The notes: generated from the letters alone by a model not told the origin. DNA of 32,000 nt from Nonlabens ponticola (GCF_003966335.1 NZ_CP034549.1:480001-512000), one strand, 5' to 3'. Counted from the stretch's first letter, positions 10,386 to 31,373 are shown. Numbers and translations are program-made.

Positions 10386-10982
10386 TCAATCAACTTTTAT
10401 GAGTGTCATTTCCTTAGGGATCCTCAACCTTTGAGATGCCTCTGGGTCATCATTAAGATTGAGAAAACCTACAATCATAGTTTTCATTCTTAGCACCTTT
10501 TGCTCAACCAGTCCAGATGATGTCAAGATCTCTCTAGTACTGAGTATAACATTTGAGTCATAGCTTGTCCACTTACTATTCACCGGATCTTCAAAGATAA
10601 AGTTAACAGGTTTTCCTGGCCTAAAATACATAGAGGAAAAATGATAGACATCATCTGGAGAGCCTTGTGTTATTGCTTGATTCAAAGTATTGATGATCTC
10701 AACACCATTTTTCACATATTTGTAGTTCCCCAATAACATGTCTGCTTTGCCGTACTCACCACCCTTTTCGTGCGCCTCGACTCTTTCCAAAACTAAGGTG
10801 AATTCTTCATTGCTTTGTTCAAATTTATAAGTGCCTTCAAAAACCAACATATCGTTATTGATATCCTTGATATACAAATTGGATTGATCATCTATGGATA
10901 AATAATTATAATCAATTGGTACAATTTGAGAATAGCCTAGACATGCACCTATAAAAAATATCAAGTTTACATGTAGTTTCAT
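10386..10982 (-). CDS. hypothetical secreted protein (paralog A of a tandem pair)
   Basis: 198-aa ORF with a signal peptide (MKLHVNLIFFIGACLGYSQ). It is AT-rich. It shares Y[IV]KDIN, a spacing-conserved core and a C-terminal M.L..V[DE] with the next ORF. Confidence 0.6.
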   Translation of the reverse strand: MKLHVNLIFFIGACLGYSQIVPIDYNYLSIDDQSNLYIKDINNDMLVFEGTYKFEQSNEEFTLVLERVEAHEKGGEYGKADMLLGNYKYVKNGVEIINTLNQAITQGSPDDVYHFSSMYFRPGKPVNFIFEDPVNSKWTSYDSNVILSTREILTSSGLVEQKVLRMKTMIVGFLNLNDDPEASQRLRIPKEMTLIKVD

Positions 10983-11154
10983 CTTGCTATAAATATTTTG
11001 ATGCAGTTTGAGATGTTGCGATTATTTAATGAGAAATTTCTGCTACTAAATTTAGAGCGGAACAAGACTTAATAAGACCACCGAAGAAATCAGATTAATC
11101 ATTTTTCCAGAAGTTTAATGGTCTTTAAGTCATTCAATAATAATGTTTTTCTAA

Positions 11155-11745
11155 CTACTCTACTCGTGTTAAAATCATATTGTCTGGATACAATTGATTG
11201 AAACCACTAGGACAATCTTCTTGAGTTGGCTGGCTTGAGCCATATTGTTGAAAAAATAATTTTAGAGTGTTATCATCGATTTTGGTAATAAAGACATTAC
11301 CGTAAATGTAGCACTCCGAGCTTTTTAACTGAAAAAAATCATAAAACCAATTACCATTACGTCCTTGTGTTATTCCATGACCTCTAAGACGTTTACTTCT
11401 AATAGAGACATTGAATGTGTCTTCTATAACTTCATCAGTATTCAAGTCAATAATTTTATGCTGCTTGCCTAAAATGTCCATGGCAAAGTCAGCGGAATTC
11501 TCTCTGTATTTCTCAATATTTAATTCATAACTCTTACCGTTTGCGATTCCAGACCATTTACCAACTAAAGGATCTAGAATATCATTAATGTCTTTGACGT
11601 AATCTAGACTCGAAGGCAATTCGCAATTTTCCTCATCTAATATGCATGCACGATGAGCCTCTAACGACATAATCGTTTGGCAGCTCGCTTGACCAACGCA
11701 AAGAAATAGTATCATCAATAAGTGACTCTTTCTCAATTCAACCAT
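11155..11745 (-). CDS. hypothetical secreted protein (paralog B of a tandem pair)
   Basis: 196-aa ORF with a signal peptide (LLMILFLCVGQASCQ) and the motif DYVKDINDIL. It ends MILTRVE, compared with MTLIKVD in paralog A. Confidence 0.6.
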   Translation of the reverse strand: MVELRKSHLLMILFLCVGQASCQTIMSLEAHRACILDEENCELPSSLDYVKDINDILDPLVGKWSGIANGKSYELNIEKYRENSADFAMDILGKQHKIIDLNTDEVIEDTFNVSIRSKRLRGHGITQGRNGNWFYDFFQLKSSECYIYGNVFITKIDDNTLKLFFQQYGSSQPTQEDCPSGFNQLYPDNMILTRVE

Positions 11746-21337: not shown

Positions 21338-21390
21338 GTATCAGATTAAATCGCGGAAGGAACAGCTCTATTTGCATCTAATTTAAGCCC

Positions 21391-22797
21391 ATGAAAGAAG
21401 AGTTACAAATAATTCAAAAATTTCTAAGTGAATTTTCAAAATTAGTATCAACTCAAGCGGATCTAAGTTTCCCCATAGAATTTTATACGGAGTATAAAGG
21501 CCAAATGAAGGTTGTTGATGCTGCATTAATTAAAAACAAAGAGGTACTTGCCATTTTTGAGTTTAAGGCAGGTGTTGTTAAAATCAATCCACAAGATTTT
21601 TGGGACGCAATACCACCAATAAATATCAACTATAAATTCTTAGTTCTTTCTAATGGTTTGGATCACTATGTATTAAATGTTTTTACAAATGCACTTCTTA
21701 GCTTTGATAATTCTGAAGATTTATTAACCCATTTATTAGAACTACCCACTGTAGAAGAAATCAATGAAACAAAGGAAAGTATAGCTTCGATCATCGAAAA
21801 AACAGTCATGGAATTTGAAAAAGAATTTGTTCATCATGATCATCCTCTGTATGAAAAATTGCCTGATTTAGTTGCTCATTTCAAAAAGGAAAAAATTGAA
21901 AGTTCGCTACGATTCGATAAAAACGGTCAGTTCTATCACCTTACTAAAGACATAAGGGATTTAACCAATTTTGAAAATCAATTTTTTCAATTGATCACCG
22001 AGGAATTAGAGGAGTCTGAAACAATCTATAGATACACTACACTTGAAACAATGTTTTCGACTATCAATCACAAGAGTATTCGATTAAATGGTATTCCTGG
22101 AATGAATGATCTTTCTGAAGTTGATTACGTTCAATCGTATCGTGACAAAGGTTTTAAATTGTCTGACTCAGCTATAGACATTGACGAATTAAATAAAAGA
22201 TTTATATTATGTAGTTCATCTTTGGAAGACGACTTGATGCAATGGAGATTGTACGGAGATGATTCTAAAGGAGCCTGTCTAGTTTTCAAGATTAAAAATA
22301 CCTCGAGAATTCCTGGACTGCAATTACGAAAGATTTGTTACGGAATCAAAGTAAATGGAGAAAACTATCATCCTGAAATTGAATTGATAAACAAGATAAT
22401 TAGCGACGTTAAGAAGCAAAAAAAAGAATCCTTTCAATTTAGAGCGTTATCAATTTGGAAGCATTTTTTCAAGTCTTACGAATATCAGCCAGAAAAAGAA
22501 GTGAGATTGTTATTAATTCTGGCTCGTGATAAAACTATTAAAGGAGAAAGTATACTTGAAGAGAAACTTCATTCAATACAAAAAATGTGGTGCTTAACAA
22601 GCTCTCATAAAATCGTTAATCCGTATATCATAATCAATGTTGATGACGATTTATTGCCGATAGAGCTAACCGAGATCGTTCTTGGTAACAAGAGCCCTGA
22701 ACCAGTTACAAATAAGAAGCAGATTGAACAATTACTATATGAAAACAAGTTAGATAACGTTTCAGTAAACATTTCTAAAATTGATAGCTATCGCTGA
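21391..22797 (+). CDS. PD-(D/E)xK-like N-terminal domain fused to a DUF2971 domain (candidate defence-island protein A)
   Basis: 468-aa ORF that is strongly AT-rich. The N-terminus carries VVD43AALIKNKEVLAIFE57FK59 (D...ExK, HsdR-N-like). The DUF2971-like motifs are IYRYTTLETMF...IRLNGIPGMNDLSE (from nt 22024), ILCSSSLEDDLMQWRLYGDDSKGACLVF (nt ~22210-22290) and YQPEKEVRLLL (22492..22506). Confidence 0.7.
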   Translation: MKEELQIIQKFLSEFSKLVSTQADLSFPIEFYTEYKGQMKVVDAALIKNKEVLAIFEFKAGVVKINPQDFWDAIPPININYKFLVLSNGLDHYVLNVFTNALLSFDNSEDLLTHLLELPTVEEINETKESIASIIEKTVMEFEKEFVHHDHPLYEKLPDLVAHFKKEKIESSLRFDKNGQFYHLTKDIRDLTNFENQFFQLITEELEESETIYRYTTLETMFSTINHKSIRLNGIPGMNDLSEVDYVQSYRDKGFKLSDSAIDIDELNKRFILCSSSLEDDLMQWRLYGDDSKGACLVFKIKNTSRIPGLQLRKICYGIKVNGENYHPEIELINKIISDVKKQKKESFQFRALSIWKHFFKSYEYQPEKEVRLLLILARDKTIKGESILEEKLHSIQKMWCLTSSHKIVNPYIIINVDDDLLPIELTEIVLGNKSPEPVTNKKQIEQLLYENKLDNVSVNISKIDSYR

Positions 22798-22866
22798 AAG
22801 CATGTTTTATCAATTTTTTTGTCTTCCAAGAATTGTATTTTGGCCTTAATAACATGCATTTTTAAT

Positions 22867-22874
22867 TATGTTTG
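22867..22874 (+). promoter_or_regulatory. candidate -7 promoter box TATGTTTG upstream of island gene B
   Basis: Matches TAnnTTTG, 55 nt upstream of the ATG at 22929 in the 131-nt A-B spacer. This is a motif match only. Confidence 0.3.
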
Positions 22875-22928
22875 ATTTACCAATTTTTTTCTAAAGGCGT
22901 AAGCCCTGTTTCTATTAAAGGATAAAAT

Positions 22929-24887
22929 ATGCCAAAAATTATTGATGTTGGAGTTGAGCAAGATCATATTGAATCCTTGACTAAGGCGAGCGGAATTACG
23001 GCTATTTCAGAGCTAATATGGAATTCTCTCGATGCAGACGCCACTAAGGTAAAAATAGAATACATTAAAAATAAACTAGGAGGCTTTGAAGAACTGGTAG
23101 TTGAGGACAATGGATTGGGAATTGAATATTCAAAAGCGCAGGATGTCTTTGGTCGATTAGGAGGTTCAGAAAAGAAGATTCAAACGAGTAGCCCAAATGG
23201 ACGCCAGTATCATGGTAAAGAAGGAAAAGGCAGATACAAATCACTGGCATTAGGTGATTTAGTAAAATTCACAAGCGTTTATAAAAATGGTGAGTCTCTA
23301 AAAGAGTTTACTGTAACATTTGACAGAAATAATTTATCACACTCGAACTTCAGCGATTTGAAAACGCTTCCGAAAGGTAGTGTGGAAACAGGTTTCAAAG
23401 TTGAAATAAAAAACATTAACCAAGAAAACGTAATTCAAGCAGTAGATCCGAAGTTCAGGAGAGAAATAGAACAGAAATTCACATCATATTGGATAAACTA
23501 TAATGATTTTGAAATTTATTTCAACGGTAATAAATTAGAATTTGAGTCTTTAATCAAAAACACAGAGGAAAAAGAATTCTTCGTTCAAAATGGTGAATTA
23601 TCATACAGATTCTCCATAAAAGTAATCGAATGGAGCTTTGACATAAGGAAGAGAACTTATTTATGCAATACCAAAGGTATTCCATTTAAAGAATTGAACC
23701 TTGGTATTCGTTCGACTATTCCTATTTCGATTTTCATTCAGTCAGTTTATATTGAAAAATTACATAGAGAAAACCTCATAGATTTAGAAAACTTTGATGA
23801 CATACTCCAAGGAGCTTATGTAGAAGCAAAGAAATTCGCTAGAGAATATGTCAGAAATAGACTTCATTTATATTCCGGAGAATTTATTAAGGAACTGAAA
23901 ACGAAGGGGCTTTATCCATATAAGGAGAATGCAGATTCTATAATTGAAGAAAGTAAAAGACAGGTTTTTGATATAGTTGCGCTTCAGGTAAATGAATATC
24001 TACCCGAATTTGAAAGTCAAAATGATAAGAGCAAAAAATTTACCCTTTCTCTAATTAAGGAAGCTTTGGAAAAAGATTCTCATTCATTACAAAAGATTTT
24101 GACTGAGGTTATTGAATTACCAGATGAAAAAAGAGAAGAATTAGTCGAAATTCTAGAAGAAACATCTTTGTCAAGTGTAATTGATACAATGACAGAAATT
24201 AAAAATAGATTGAGATTTATCAATGGTCTTGAGGAACTAATTTATAATAAAGACCTAAACAAGAATATTTTAGAGCGAAAGCATCTTCATAAAATTTTGG
24301 TGAACGAAACATGGCTATTCGGCGATGAATATACATATGGCGTTGATGACGTTACGCTTAAGAATGTTTTAAAAGCATACTTGAAAAGTTTAGGTAGATC
24401 TGATTTTGAAGAGACTATAAGTAATGACTCGAATAATGATCTGCAAATCATACCTGACGTATGCTTATGGAGGCAATTCCCACAAGGTTCGCCTGGTCAT
24501 AAAACAAATTTGATTATTGAATTGAAAAAGCCAACAAAAGATGCTGGTGTTGAAGAACTGATGCAGATAAAGCTTTATGCCGCTAGAATATCCAACGATA
24601 AGAGATTTCCTAAAGAAAAAACCAAATGGAAATTTCTTTTGATTACTAAAGACATTAAGCCAGACATTGAACCTGAATTAGAACAAACTGGGAGGAAATA
24701 TGGTCATGTTGTTTCAACGGATTTATATGACGTATTCGTTTTAACATGGGGACATATCTTGACCGAGGCAAAAACAAGATATGAATATGTAAAAGATAAA
24801 TTGAATTTGAACTTAATGGATAACCAACATAATTTGGATTATCTCAAATCAAGATACAATGAATATTTACCGAATGAATTGAATTGA
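22929..24887 (+). CDS. GHKL (HATPase_c_3/MORC-like) ATPase fused to a C-terminal Shedu/DUF4263-like PD-(D/E)xK nuclease domain (candidate defence-island protein B)
   Basis: 652-aa ORF, AT-rich. The Bergerat-fold motifs are E28LIWNSLDADA (23010..23042), D60NGLG (23106..23120), and FGRLGGSEK / GKEGKGRYKS. The C-terminus reads ERKHLHKILVNETWLFGDEY...IIPD510VCLW...LIIE531LK533KP...Q546IKLY550 (D 24456, ExK 24519..24527). Confidence 0.7.
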   Translation: MPKIIDVGVEQDHIESLTKASGITAISELIWNSLDADATKVKIEYIKNKLGGFEELVVEDNGLGIEYSKAQDVFGRLGGSEKKIQTSSPNGRQYHGKEGKGRYKSLALGDLVKFTSVYKNGESLKEFTVTFDRNNLSHSNFSDLKTLPKGSVETGFKVEIKNINQENVIQAVDPKFRREIEQKFTSYWINYNDFEIYFNGNKLEFESLIKNTEEKEFFVQNGELSYRFSIKVIEWSFDIRKRTYLCNTKGIPFKELNLGIRSTIPISIFIQSVYIEKLHRENLIDLENFDDILQGAYVEAKKFAREYVRNRLHLYSGEFIKELKTKGLYPYKENADSIIEESKRQVFDIVALQVNEYLPEFESQNDKSKKFTLSLIKEALEKDSHSLQKILTEVIELPDEKREELVEILEETSLSSVIDTMTEIKNRLRFINGLEELIYNKDLNKNILERKHLHKILVNETWLFGDEYTYGVDDVTLKNVLKAYLKSLGRSDFEETISNDSNNDLQIIPDVCLWRQFPQGSPGHKTNLIIELKKPTKDAGVEELMQIKLYAARISNDKRFPKEKTKWKFLLITKDIKPDIEPELEQTGRKYGHVVSTDLYDVFVLTWGHILTEAKTRYEYVKDKLNLNLMDNQHNLDYLKSRYNEYLPNELN

Positions 24888-25053
24888 AGAAAAGTTAGGA
24901 TAAAAGTTATTTAATGCGAATTCAAAAATGATTACACAGAAAATCAGACTGTATAAAAATAAAATACTCACAACCCAACCTCAATCCTATTTTTATGTGA
25001 ACGCTTCTAGCTAATAGCTGTAAGTCAGCGATATTGCTGTAAAATCAAATATC

Positions 25054-29310: not shown

Positions 29311-29342
29311 AAAATCCCGATCTGTTGATCGGGATTTTTTTG
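29311..29342 (+). terminator. rho-independent terminator of sdhCAB
   Basis: ATCCCGATC-TGTT-GATCGGGAT stem followed by a T7 run. Confidence 0.85.
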
Positions 29343-29408: not shown

Positions 29409-31373
29409 ATGCAAAGAGCTTATTATTCAAAATCACTTACCAAATTTATATTAGAAAGCGAATCCTCCATTTTGGGTGAGTTATCCTCAAAACATGCCAA
29501 CAGGCAATTGGACGAGCTGCAAATCAATGCATGGAAATCCCAAATTAAAATACTAAGAGAGAAGGTTAATGGTCAAAAGGGAAAAATCTATTTTGAGTTT
29601 GCCATACCACGCATGGGTAAACGCGTTGATAATATCATAATCATTCACGATACTATTTTCATAGTAGAGTTTAAAGTGAATGATAGAATCTATTCTAAGA
29701 ATGCTATCGAGCAAGCGATAGATTACACGATAGACCTTAAGAATTTTCATGAAGGCAGTCATAAAGCTAAACTTATACCTGTTGTTGTATCCACTAAAGC
29801 GAAAAATTGGCCTGAGAACACTGATGCTGTTAAACACTTTCACACAGCCGCAAAAGCTAATCAAAGTAATCTCAAACAAGTACTAGATCAATACATTGAA
29901 GTAAGCAATGAACCGATCAACATTGAGAATTGGGAAAACTCTCTTTACAAACCAACTCCAACTATAGTTCAAGCAGCACAAGCTCTATACAAAGGCCACA
30001 ACGTTGAAGAAATTACAAGGTCCGACTCGGGAGCGATCAATTTATCAAAAACGGCTGATTGCATTAACGACATCATCCATAATTCAAAAAACAATAAACT
30101 AAAATCTATTTGTTTTGTAACTGGCGTCCCAGGAGCTGGAAAAACTCTTGCTGGACTTAATGTGGCTGTTGACAGAATGAATACGGACAAAGATGAACAT
30201 GCTGTTTTCCTTTCTGGTAACGGTCCTCTTGTAGAGGTATTAAGAGAAGCACTTACAAGAGACGAAGTTGCGACTGAAAAATTGAGAGGAAACAAATTGA
30301 CTAAAAAGAAGGCAGCGATTAAAGCCAATTCTTTTATTCAAAACATTCATCATTTTAGAGATGATAACCTGCTTTCAAATAAAGCTCCGGTAGAAAGGGT
30401 TGTAGTTTTTGATGAGGCACAACGTGCCTGGACAAAGCATCAAACCAGCTCATTTATGCGACGCAAAAAGGGAAAAGACGATTTTGACATGTCTGAACCA
30501 GAATTTTTAATAAGTGTAATGGATCGACATACAGATTGGTGTACAATTGTTTGCCTTATAGGTGGTGGTCAAGAAATCAATACAGGCGAAGCAGGTCTTG
30601 AAGAATGGATTAAATCATTAGCACGGAGCTTTCCGGATTGGCAAATTCACTTTTCTACACCGATACTTACGCAATCTAATTATCTTAAATCTGAAGCGTC
30701 AAAGAGCTTTCTAGTGAAAAATGGTCATCAAACACGAGACTTGCATTTGTCTGTCTCGATTAGATCATTTCGTTCAGAGAAATTATCAAGGTTTATTCAT
30801 GAGATGCTGGAACTCAATTTGAGTCACGCTCAAAATTTGTTCAAGGAAATTAAAAATGACTATCCGATAGTAATCACAAGAGATCTTGAAAAAGCGAAGA
30901 AATGGATGAAATCAAAAGCCTTGGGAACAGAGCGAATTGGATTAGTTGCCTCTTCTGGAGCTCGTAGATTGCGACCCAAAGGAATAGATGTGAAAAACGA
31001 AATCTCTGCCTCAAATTGGTTTTTAAATGACAGCACTGATATCAGATCATCATATTTTTTAGAAGATGTTGCTACCGAGTTCGATATTCAAGGGCTTGAA
31101 ATTGATTGGTGTTGCGTCGCATGGGGCGCTAACTTTTATCTTAAAGATTCAGAATGACAATATCAGAACCTCAAGGGAACTAAATGGCAAAACATCAATA
31201 AAACAGAACTTCAAGAATATTTAAAAAACACCTATCGAGTCCTTTTAACTAGAGCAAGACAAGGAATGATCATTTACATTCCAGAAGGTGATGTTTCTGA
31301 CATTACAAGGGCGGACGAATTTTATGATGAAACTTTTGATTACTTCAAGTCAGTAGGAGTTTTTGAAATATAA
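29409..31373 (+). pseudogene. DUF2075-type nuclease-helicase (Schlafen-like/COG3410 ATPase) interrupted by an in-frame TGA at 31155..31157
   Basis: The 582-aa ORF carries a PD-(D/E)xK-like motif (RVDNIIIIHDTIFIVEFK), Walker A GVPGAGKT (30123..30146) and Walker B VVVFDEAQ (DE at 30411..30416). The same frame continues after the TGA for 72 codons (QYQNLKGTKWQN...YRVLLTRARQGMIIYIP...VGVFEI*) to the TAA at 31371..31373. That stretch contains the helicase C-terminal LTRAR motif. Confidence 0.8.

Follow-up and report, generated by a model that had tools for sequence, protein, structure and literature searches.

Two co-oriented genes that share one AT-rich island raise the question of whether they constitute a single defence system or two separate ones. 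We address this question for an island at positions 21338-25053 (no strand assigned) of a 32,000-nucleotide (nt) stretch of Nonlabens ponticola DNA (GCF_003966335.1, NZ_CP034549.1:480001-512000; referred to as "the window", with positions counted from its first letter). The island carries gene A (21391-22797, + strand), which encodes a 468-amino-acid (aa) protein comprising a PD-(D/E)xK domain, a helical linker and a DUF2971 domain, and gene B (22929-24887, + strand), which encodes a 652-aa protein comprising a GHKL ATPase, a middle domain, a helical linker and a PD-(D/E)xK nuclease domain; the corresponding protein records are AZQ43091.1 and AZQ43092.1 (100% identity). An earlier reading of the window, made from the sequence alone (the sequence-only reading), had placed both open reading frames (ORFs) at these positions and had proposed that the pair forms an undescribed anti-phage system. 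We find that A and B are new members of described kinds, Aristaios/PDC-S31 and GHKL-ATPase Shedu, respectively, and that the island is probably a small defence-gene hotspot, in which two unrelated, independently acquired single-gene anti-phage modules have become chance neighbours.

The first part of the answer concerns the domain organization of B. The protein begins with a GHKL (Bergerat) ATPase fold (residues 19-165; 22983-23423), marked by E28, N32, D35, D60-G62-G64, G78-S80-K82 and G99-G101-R102; continues with a GHKL-associated, S5/transducer-like middle domain (residues 174-289; 23448-23795) and an all-helical linker (residues 291-444; 23799-24260); and ends with a PD-(D/E)xK nuclease domain (residues 445-628; 24261-24812) containing E449, D474, D510, E531, K533 and Q546, all four segments being on the + strand. 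The N-terminus matches HATPase_c_3 with E 6e-20, in agreement with the sequence-only reading. In an alignment of 65 diverse family members, 29-54% identical to B, the GHKL signature (E28/N32, D60xGxG, G78-S80-K82 and G99xG101-R102) and nuclease residues E449, D510, E531, K533 and Q546 are invariant, and the five residues that had been proposed as catalytic (N32, D60, D510, E531 and K533) show no or almost no variation. Searches with the C-terminal half of B returned 1,222 clusters at 50% identity, nearly all consisting of proteins of ~650-690 aa; the matches sit at residues ~300-650 of these proteins, and the whole architecture of B is therefore conserved as one polypeptide. An AlphaFold2 model of B made with the 65-sequence alignment has a predicted local distance difference test (pLDDT) value of 87, and its N-terminal ~330 residues (GHKL plus middle domain) yield Foldseek matches to MORC2/3/4, TRAP1/Hsp90 and MutL.

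This architecture is already in the literature. Iyer, Abhiman and Aravind (2008; PMC2292703) defined paraMORC3 as a GHKL domain followed by an S5 domain and a C-terminal restriction-endonuclease-fold domain with an E-D-ExK signature; they described the family as prevalent in Bacteroidetes and Proteobacteria, with a subset of members standing alone without a conserved neighbourhood, and treated it as a computational family with no assigned phenotype. Gu et al. classified as type 1D those Shedu homologs that have a HATPase_c_3 fold and a linked middle domain, and Adams et al. (2025) validated Vibrio cholerae VcSduA, formerly a paraMORC3, as a single-gene type I-D Shedu system. In the latter work, substitutions E27A in the ATPase and K557A in the nuclease abolish protection, protection is direct and is seen at all multiplicities of infection, and the model of the protein is an entwined dimer (Adams et al., 2025). 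B has the organization of a standalone paraMORC3, with GHKL, S5-like and C-terminal restriction-endonuclease-fold domains and E-D-ExK residues, and its homologs occur in Bacteroidota and, as plasmid copies, in Proteobacteria and Streptomyces.

Profile-profile comparison with hhalign aligns B with VcSduA from one end to the other. The VcSduA-family sequences were those of a bioRxiv supplement, represented by nine N-termini and seven C-terminal halves; the C-terminal profile was built with N-terminally truncated entries that reach the C-terminus. Alignment of the B family with the nine N-termini had a probability of 98.1% and E 8.9e-14 over 256 columns, with B residues 19-289 lying over VcSduA residues 18-313 and B E28 falling on VcSduA E27. 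Alignment with the seven C-terminal halves had a probability of 96.6% and E 5.8e-10 over 225 columns and extended to the C-terminus, with B E449, H452, W462, D474, D510, E531, K533, P535 and Y550 matching the E, H, W, D, D, E, K, P and Y that are invariant in the VcSduA family. Negative controls with the N-terminal PD-(D/E)xK domain of A gave E 0.56 and 0.08 over 23-67 columns. B and VcSduA are alike in being single polypeptides of ~650-673 aa whose GHKL, clamp-like middle, helical-linker and C-terminal PD-(D/E)xK segments follow in that order, in the placement of B E531-x-K533 on the invariant ExK of the family, and in being encoded by a standalone gene on a mobile island. They differ in motif I, which is ISELIWNSLDADA in B and P-x-FEAV-x-NSI in the VcSduA family.

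Several observations weigh against this reading of B and of the island. Pairwise BLASTP of B against VcSduA gives nothing significant; none of the 543 published VcSduA-model hits is from N. ponticola, and N. ulvanivorans alone represents the genus there; and Pfam DUF4263 (PF14082), which the sequence-only reading had attributed to B, does not match B, its isolated C-terminus or any of the 65 relatives (E<=0.01). The PADLOC SduA models match B with E 0.039 at residues 373-468 and match 4/65 family members, with a best E of 1e-4. With no pairwise or Pfam match and a marginal PADLOC match, the membership of B rests on profile-profile homology. The top 50 Foldseek matches in the PDB for two full-length models of B are all MORC, TRAP1/Hsp90 or MutL, and these GHKL matches fill the list, hiding fold neighbours of the C-terminal domain, SduA structures included. 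For the island as a whole, A and B are co-oriented and 131 nt apart and may be co-transcribed in N. ponticola, and the anti-phage activity of the B clade and of the A clade would hold by analogy with their characterized relatives.

Sequence and profile searches of PDB chains with B likewise returned GHKL proteins only, with no SduA, and the isolated C-termini of the B family match the PADLOC SduA models over a single 20-aa stretch equivalent to B 449-468. The absence of B from the VcSduA-model hits, together with the non-significant BLASTP comparison, places B in a sister clade and not in the VcSduA clade proper; VcSduA itself, sought by its E27 and K557, was not found among the best 150 B-family representatives. 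We conclude that B is, as judged from its sequence, a full-length, collinear, remote homolog of VcSduA in a sister clade overlooked by current profiles. The sequence-only reading had correctly recognized B as the fusion of a GHKL ATPase with a Shedu-related PD-(D/E)xK nuclease. It had also set Shedu aside as a single-gene system and taken the locus to be undescribed, and on these two points it finds no support: B is exactly a single-gene Shedu-type protein, of an architecture already published and validated in VcSduA (type I-D, paraMORC3).

Comparison with canonical SduA (DUF4263; Bacillus cereus and E. coli) delimits the relationship further. Canonical SduA and B share a PD-(D/E)xK core with a preceding E-containing helix, and are alike as single-gene defence proteins in which an N-terminal regulatory domain would gate the nuclease. 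Canonical SduA, however, has ~400 aa and non-enzymatic N-terminal domains and forms tetramers, whereas an ATPase module is part of B and the model of VcSduA is dimeric; B also falls below the Pfam and PADLOC thresholds for SduA. Several published VcSduA-model hits are N-terminally truncated "hypothetical proteins" that comprise the helical linker and nuclease half only (bioRxiv 10.1101/2024.11.23.624991, supplementary Table 5), examples being Burkholderia cenocepacia A8F32_RS08515, Elizabethkingia JCR23_RS06370 and F. psychrophilum MUG73_RS11325; such entries are either free-standing nuclease halves or the products of genes that have split or decayed.

By analogy with VcSduA, B would most likely dimerize through its GHKL ATPase; by the same analogy, and from GHKL biology, ATP binding and hydrolysis would move the clamp-like middle domain and thereby gate the C-terminal PD-(D/E)xK domain. 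The nuclease, once released or positioned, would cut invading phage DNA, in a direct, non-abortive response that does not kill the host. All residues needed for this mechanism are conserved in B, and the ATPase and nuclease requirements have been demonstrated for the homolog VcSduA.

The alternative that survives best, although it is unlikely, is that B is a GHKL-type restriction endonuclease of the BbrUII/HgiDII kind, either paired with a methyltransferase encoded elsewhere or cutting as a type IV enzyme that depends on modification, and is not a Shedu-like sensor-nuclease. The N-terminus of B matches the NCBIfam BbrUII/HgiDII model (NF050001) with E 4e-15, PADLOC REase_II models match 42/65 members of the B family, type I restriction-modification (R-M) genes lie near several B homologs, and Iyer et al. 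placed paraMORCs mainly in R-M systems (PMC2292703). The NCBIfam match, however, is confined to residues 26-206, the GHKL part of the protein, and scores 55 bits against a cut-off of 550, and on that score the assignment of B as a BbrUII/HgiDII restriction enzyme was rejected. In addition, there is no methyltransferase in the island, nor beside B in most loci, and the homology of B that is collinear over the whole length is to VcSduA.

The second part of the answer concerns A. Pfam DUF2971 (PF11185) matches A residues 284-373 with 28.5 bits against a cut-off of 22, within a DUF2971/PDC-S31 core that spans residues 213-376 (22027-22518, + strand). The N-terminal HSDR_N_2-like PD-(D/E)xK domain (residues 27-97; 21469-21681, + strand) is borderline in score, at 23-25 bits against a cut-off of 25, but among 31 homologs its putative catalytic residues are retained by 28 (D43), 26 (E57) and 22 (K59). 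Both domains had been recognized in the sequence-only reading and both hold; the description of DUF2971 as uncharacterized is too sweeping, given that Aristaios is a validated abortive-infection (Abi) system with a DUF2971 domain and that PADLOC lists PDC-S31. PADLOC PDC-S31 models match 28/31 members of the A family, with a best E of 4e-13, and match A itself with E 6e-6; the nearest relative of A is 55% identical. Aristaios is a 316-aa DUF2971 protein from a Lactococcus plasmid that acts alone, disrupts phage transcription and has a predicted ADP-ribosyltransferase-like fold. A resembles Aristaios/PDC-S31 in that its C-terminal half is DUF2971 and in that both are single-gene modules; A differs in having 468 aa, with an added N-terminal HSDR_N_2/Cas4-like PD-(D/E)xK domain and helical linker, and in belonging to a Bacteroidota clade, with type I R-M operons housing its more distant relatives.

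The 31 homologs share R214, Y215, D240, E243, R286, Y288, H358, K361, E368, E370 and R372 without exception, and 30 of them have S or T at position 276. An R, S/T and ExE pattern is a trait of R-S-E-class ADP-ribosyltransferases, and the invariant R, S/T and ExE residues of the DUF2971 domain of A are compatible with a putative ADP-ribosyltransferase-like active site. A profile of the A family compared with PDB sequences gave marginal matches to Cas4 and HsdR N-termini only (E ~1) and no ADP-ribosyltransferase. We suggest that A would most likely act as a standalone, Abi-type effector, in which the DUF2971 core would modify a host or phage target and the N-terminal nuclease-fold domain would bind or cut DNA, as a DNA sensor or a second effector.

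The genomic surroundings of A relatives were analyzed in 80 metagenomic loci, 31 of them with at least 2.5 kb on each side. The closest relatives (52-55% identity) are standalone, and none has a GHKL neighbour. More distant relatives lie within type I R-M operons, typically in the order HsdM-HsdS-[A]-(GmrSD)-HsdR: in 18 loci the A homolog directly follows HsdS, and in 11 it is followed by HsdR. This frequent occurrence inside type I R-M operons suggests that A may back up or monitor restriction. The embedded arrangement is seen at L024:1349-11062 and also in L029, L035, L036, L040, L041, L051 and others, and recalls the way in which other Abi genes are housed within type I R-M loci. Other A relatives adjoin Schlafen/AlbA_2 or KAP NTPase genes. 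In Draconibacterium orientale (L103:9465-14180), a 52%-identical A homolog is directly followed by a gene for a 1571-aa protein that has no recorded Pfam match, with resolvase and helix-turn-helix genes close by; the 1571-aa protein may be a large partner or separate mobile-element cargo.

The third part of the answer concerns whether A and B belong together. A tblastn search found A homologs within ±10 kb of B at 0/19 genomic loci, clustering of flanking ORFs found no conserved neighbour of B among the same 19 loci, and 79 of the 80 A loci lack a GHKL gene. The remaining locus, L087, has a GHKL-like gene (L087:1500-2885), 24% identical to B over residues 25-472, that lies 5 kb upstream of the DUF2971 gene (L087:8001-8822) and is not adjacent to it; here the two genes seem to be fellow residents of a defence island and not partners. 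At the nucleotide level, homology between the window and all 19 B loci extends from 22917-22929 to 24874-24889, that is, over the B ORF alone, and excludes both A and the spacer between A and B. The nearest homologs have diverged to different extents, being 90% identical for B and 55% identical for A. The spacer itself (22798-22928, + strand; 131 nt) is AT-rich and has no conserved counterpart at other B loci. Within it, TATGTTTG (22867-22874) matches TAnnTTTG and lies 54 nt upstream of the B ATG; TAnnTTTG is the Bacteroidetes -7 promoter consensus and occurs 11 times on the + strand of the window, once within the spacer. The motif is compatible with a candidate promoter of B's own.

We regard it as very unlikely that A and B cooperate in N. 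ponticola as a lineage-specific composite, in which, for example, a signal from A would license the B nuclease, while the B clade would separately constitute a distinct GHKL-Shedu branch that has its own trigger, comprises at least 1,200 clusters at 50% identity and goes unseen by current defence-finding tools. The proposal of the sequence-only reading, that A and B form one undescribed two-gene defence system, with A, for example, as the sensor or modifier of a target and B as the DNA-degrading component, is highly improbable. The shared orientation, close spacing and similar AT-richness of the two genes speak for it, as does the A locus with a distant GHKL gene; speaking against it are the lack of A homologs at the 19 B loci and of a GHKL gene at 79 of the 80 A loci, the end of DNA homology at the B ORF boundaries, the unlike divergence of the nearest homologs, the promoter motif in the spacer, the standalone occurrence of the closest A relatives, and the fact that VcSduA and Aristaios each work alone. 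The sequence-only reading had named a lack of co-localization across genomes as grounds for abandoning its proposal, and homologs of A and B are not co-localized. We conclude that A and B are best read as independent single-gene modules.

The composition of the island indicates foreign origin of the DNA. The island has a G+C content of 0.319, compared with 0.426 for the remainder of the window; 417 other 3716-nt segments all have G+C contents of at least 0.39 (mean 0.425, standard deviation 0.014), placing the island ~7.5 standard deviations below the mean. The drop begins no more than ~60 nt past the stop codon of the upstream gene and stops ~50 nt short of the downstream gene. The sequence-only reading had contrasted the island with flanks of 45-57% G+C; the contrast stands, in that the island is far more AT-rich, but the flanks were overestimated and actually have ~40-47%. 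We conclude that the island is compositionally foreign and, as had also been proposed, carries horizontally acquired genes of defence type.

The neighbours of the island are, as described in the sequence-only reading, a Sortilin/BNR Asp-box protein gene upstream and a DUF421 gene followed by genes for SdhC/A/B downstream. Equally in line with that reading, the window contains no tRNA gene and no integrase was found. A search for flanking direct or inverted repeats and for terminators gave nothing above chance, with only chance-level matches of 12-28 nt. No methyltransferase gene is present within the island. In N. arenilitoris, N. mediterrranea and a Nonlabens metagenome-assembled genome (MAG) (L100, L101 and L102), DUF421 adjoins neither sdhCAB nor the Asp-box gene. 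Lacking synteny for DUF421, these other Nonlabens offer no empty site to set beside the island, and the local arrangement of genes is thus peculiar to N. ponticola. DUF421 may itself have been relocated.

The distribution of B homologs provides evidence of mobility. Relatives 85-90% identical to B occur in Polaribacter, Maribacter, Lacinutrix, Mariniflexile, Arenibacter and a Balneolales MAG, and the Maribacter homolog is 88% identical, compared with 68% for the DUF421 core protein. The G+C content of B is 27-33% in every host. B homologs are located on elements resembling integrative and conjugative elements (ICEs) as well as on plasmids, with full-length plasmid-borne relatives in Phaeobacter, Psychrobacter, Sinorhizobium and Streptomyces, and their neighbours include type I R-M genes (HsdM/S/R), conjugative TraG, a type IV coupling protein (T4CP), DUF5712 and a UvrD-like helicase. 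These surroundings agree with a mobile defence gene. Two homologs, in a Saprospiraceae MAG (L015:10001-11958) and an uncultured Bacteroides contig (L018:191-2157), are split into two ORFs, representing either frameshifts or decay in progress or assembly errors. Another alternative, that B is a MutL/MORC-like factor for DNA repair, chromosome organization or mobile-element maintenance and that A is an unrelated accessory gene, draws on the resemblance of the GHKL and middle domains to MutL, MORC and Hsp90 and on speculation by Iyer et al. about functions of standalone paraMORC3 proteins outside R-M (PMC2292703), but is highly improbable in view of the patchy, horizontally mobile distribution of B (with the Maribacter identities above), its AT-richness in every host, its occurrence near R-M genes and on plasmids or ICE-like elements, the proven anti-phage function of the homolog VcSduA, and the occurrence of the A family inside R-M operons and its match to the defence candidate PDC-S31.

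Two other low-G+C patches are present in the window. The first, 4.5 kb downstream and just past the sdhB terminator (a stem-loop with a T-run at ~29313-29342), has a G+C content of 0.35-0.39 and contains a 582-aa ORF (29409-31157, + strand) that matches the PADLOC single-gene defence candidate PDC-S41 with E 3.9e-252. The match is near full length, covering profile positions 1-579 of 657, and the ORF also matches Pfam SLFN-g3_helicase/DUF2075 with E 8e-72; short ORFs that follow it in other frames (31066-31224 and 31266-31373) suggest that its 3' end may be frameshifted. With this candidate nearby, the DUF421-sdhCAB region looks like a hotspot that gathers separate single-gene modules, which fits the reading of A and B as independent modules. 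The second patch (10386-11745, - strand; G+C 0.33-0.37) encodes a 198-aa DUF6705 protein and contains a 196-aa ORF matched by neither Pfam nor PADLOC, and is possibly another small acquired segment.

The value of these results lies in annotation and not in a new concept. They carry the lesson that sharing an AT-rich island as neighbours does not establish a system at the level of the operon. Knowledge of Aristaios/PDC-S31 could be extended through the A family, in which DUF2971 is joined to a PD-(D/E)xK domain and the gene often lies between hsdS and hsdR. The B clade is very large and widespread in Bacteroidota, carries only the RefSeq name "ATP-binding protein", and escapes Pfam DUF4263, PADLOC SduA and the published VcSduA model, although its members are full-length homologs of a validated Shedu protein. 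As a second, divergent model, the clade would help in studying the gating of a Shedu nuclease by a GHKL ATPase, and a profile for it would raise the counts of defence systems in marine Flavobacteriia and related groups.

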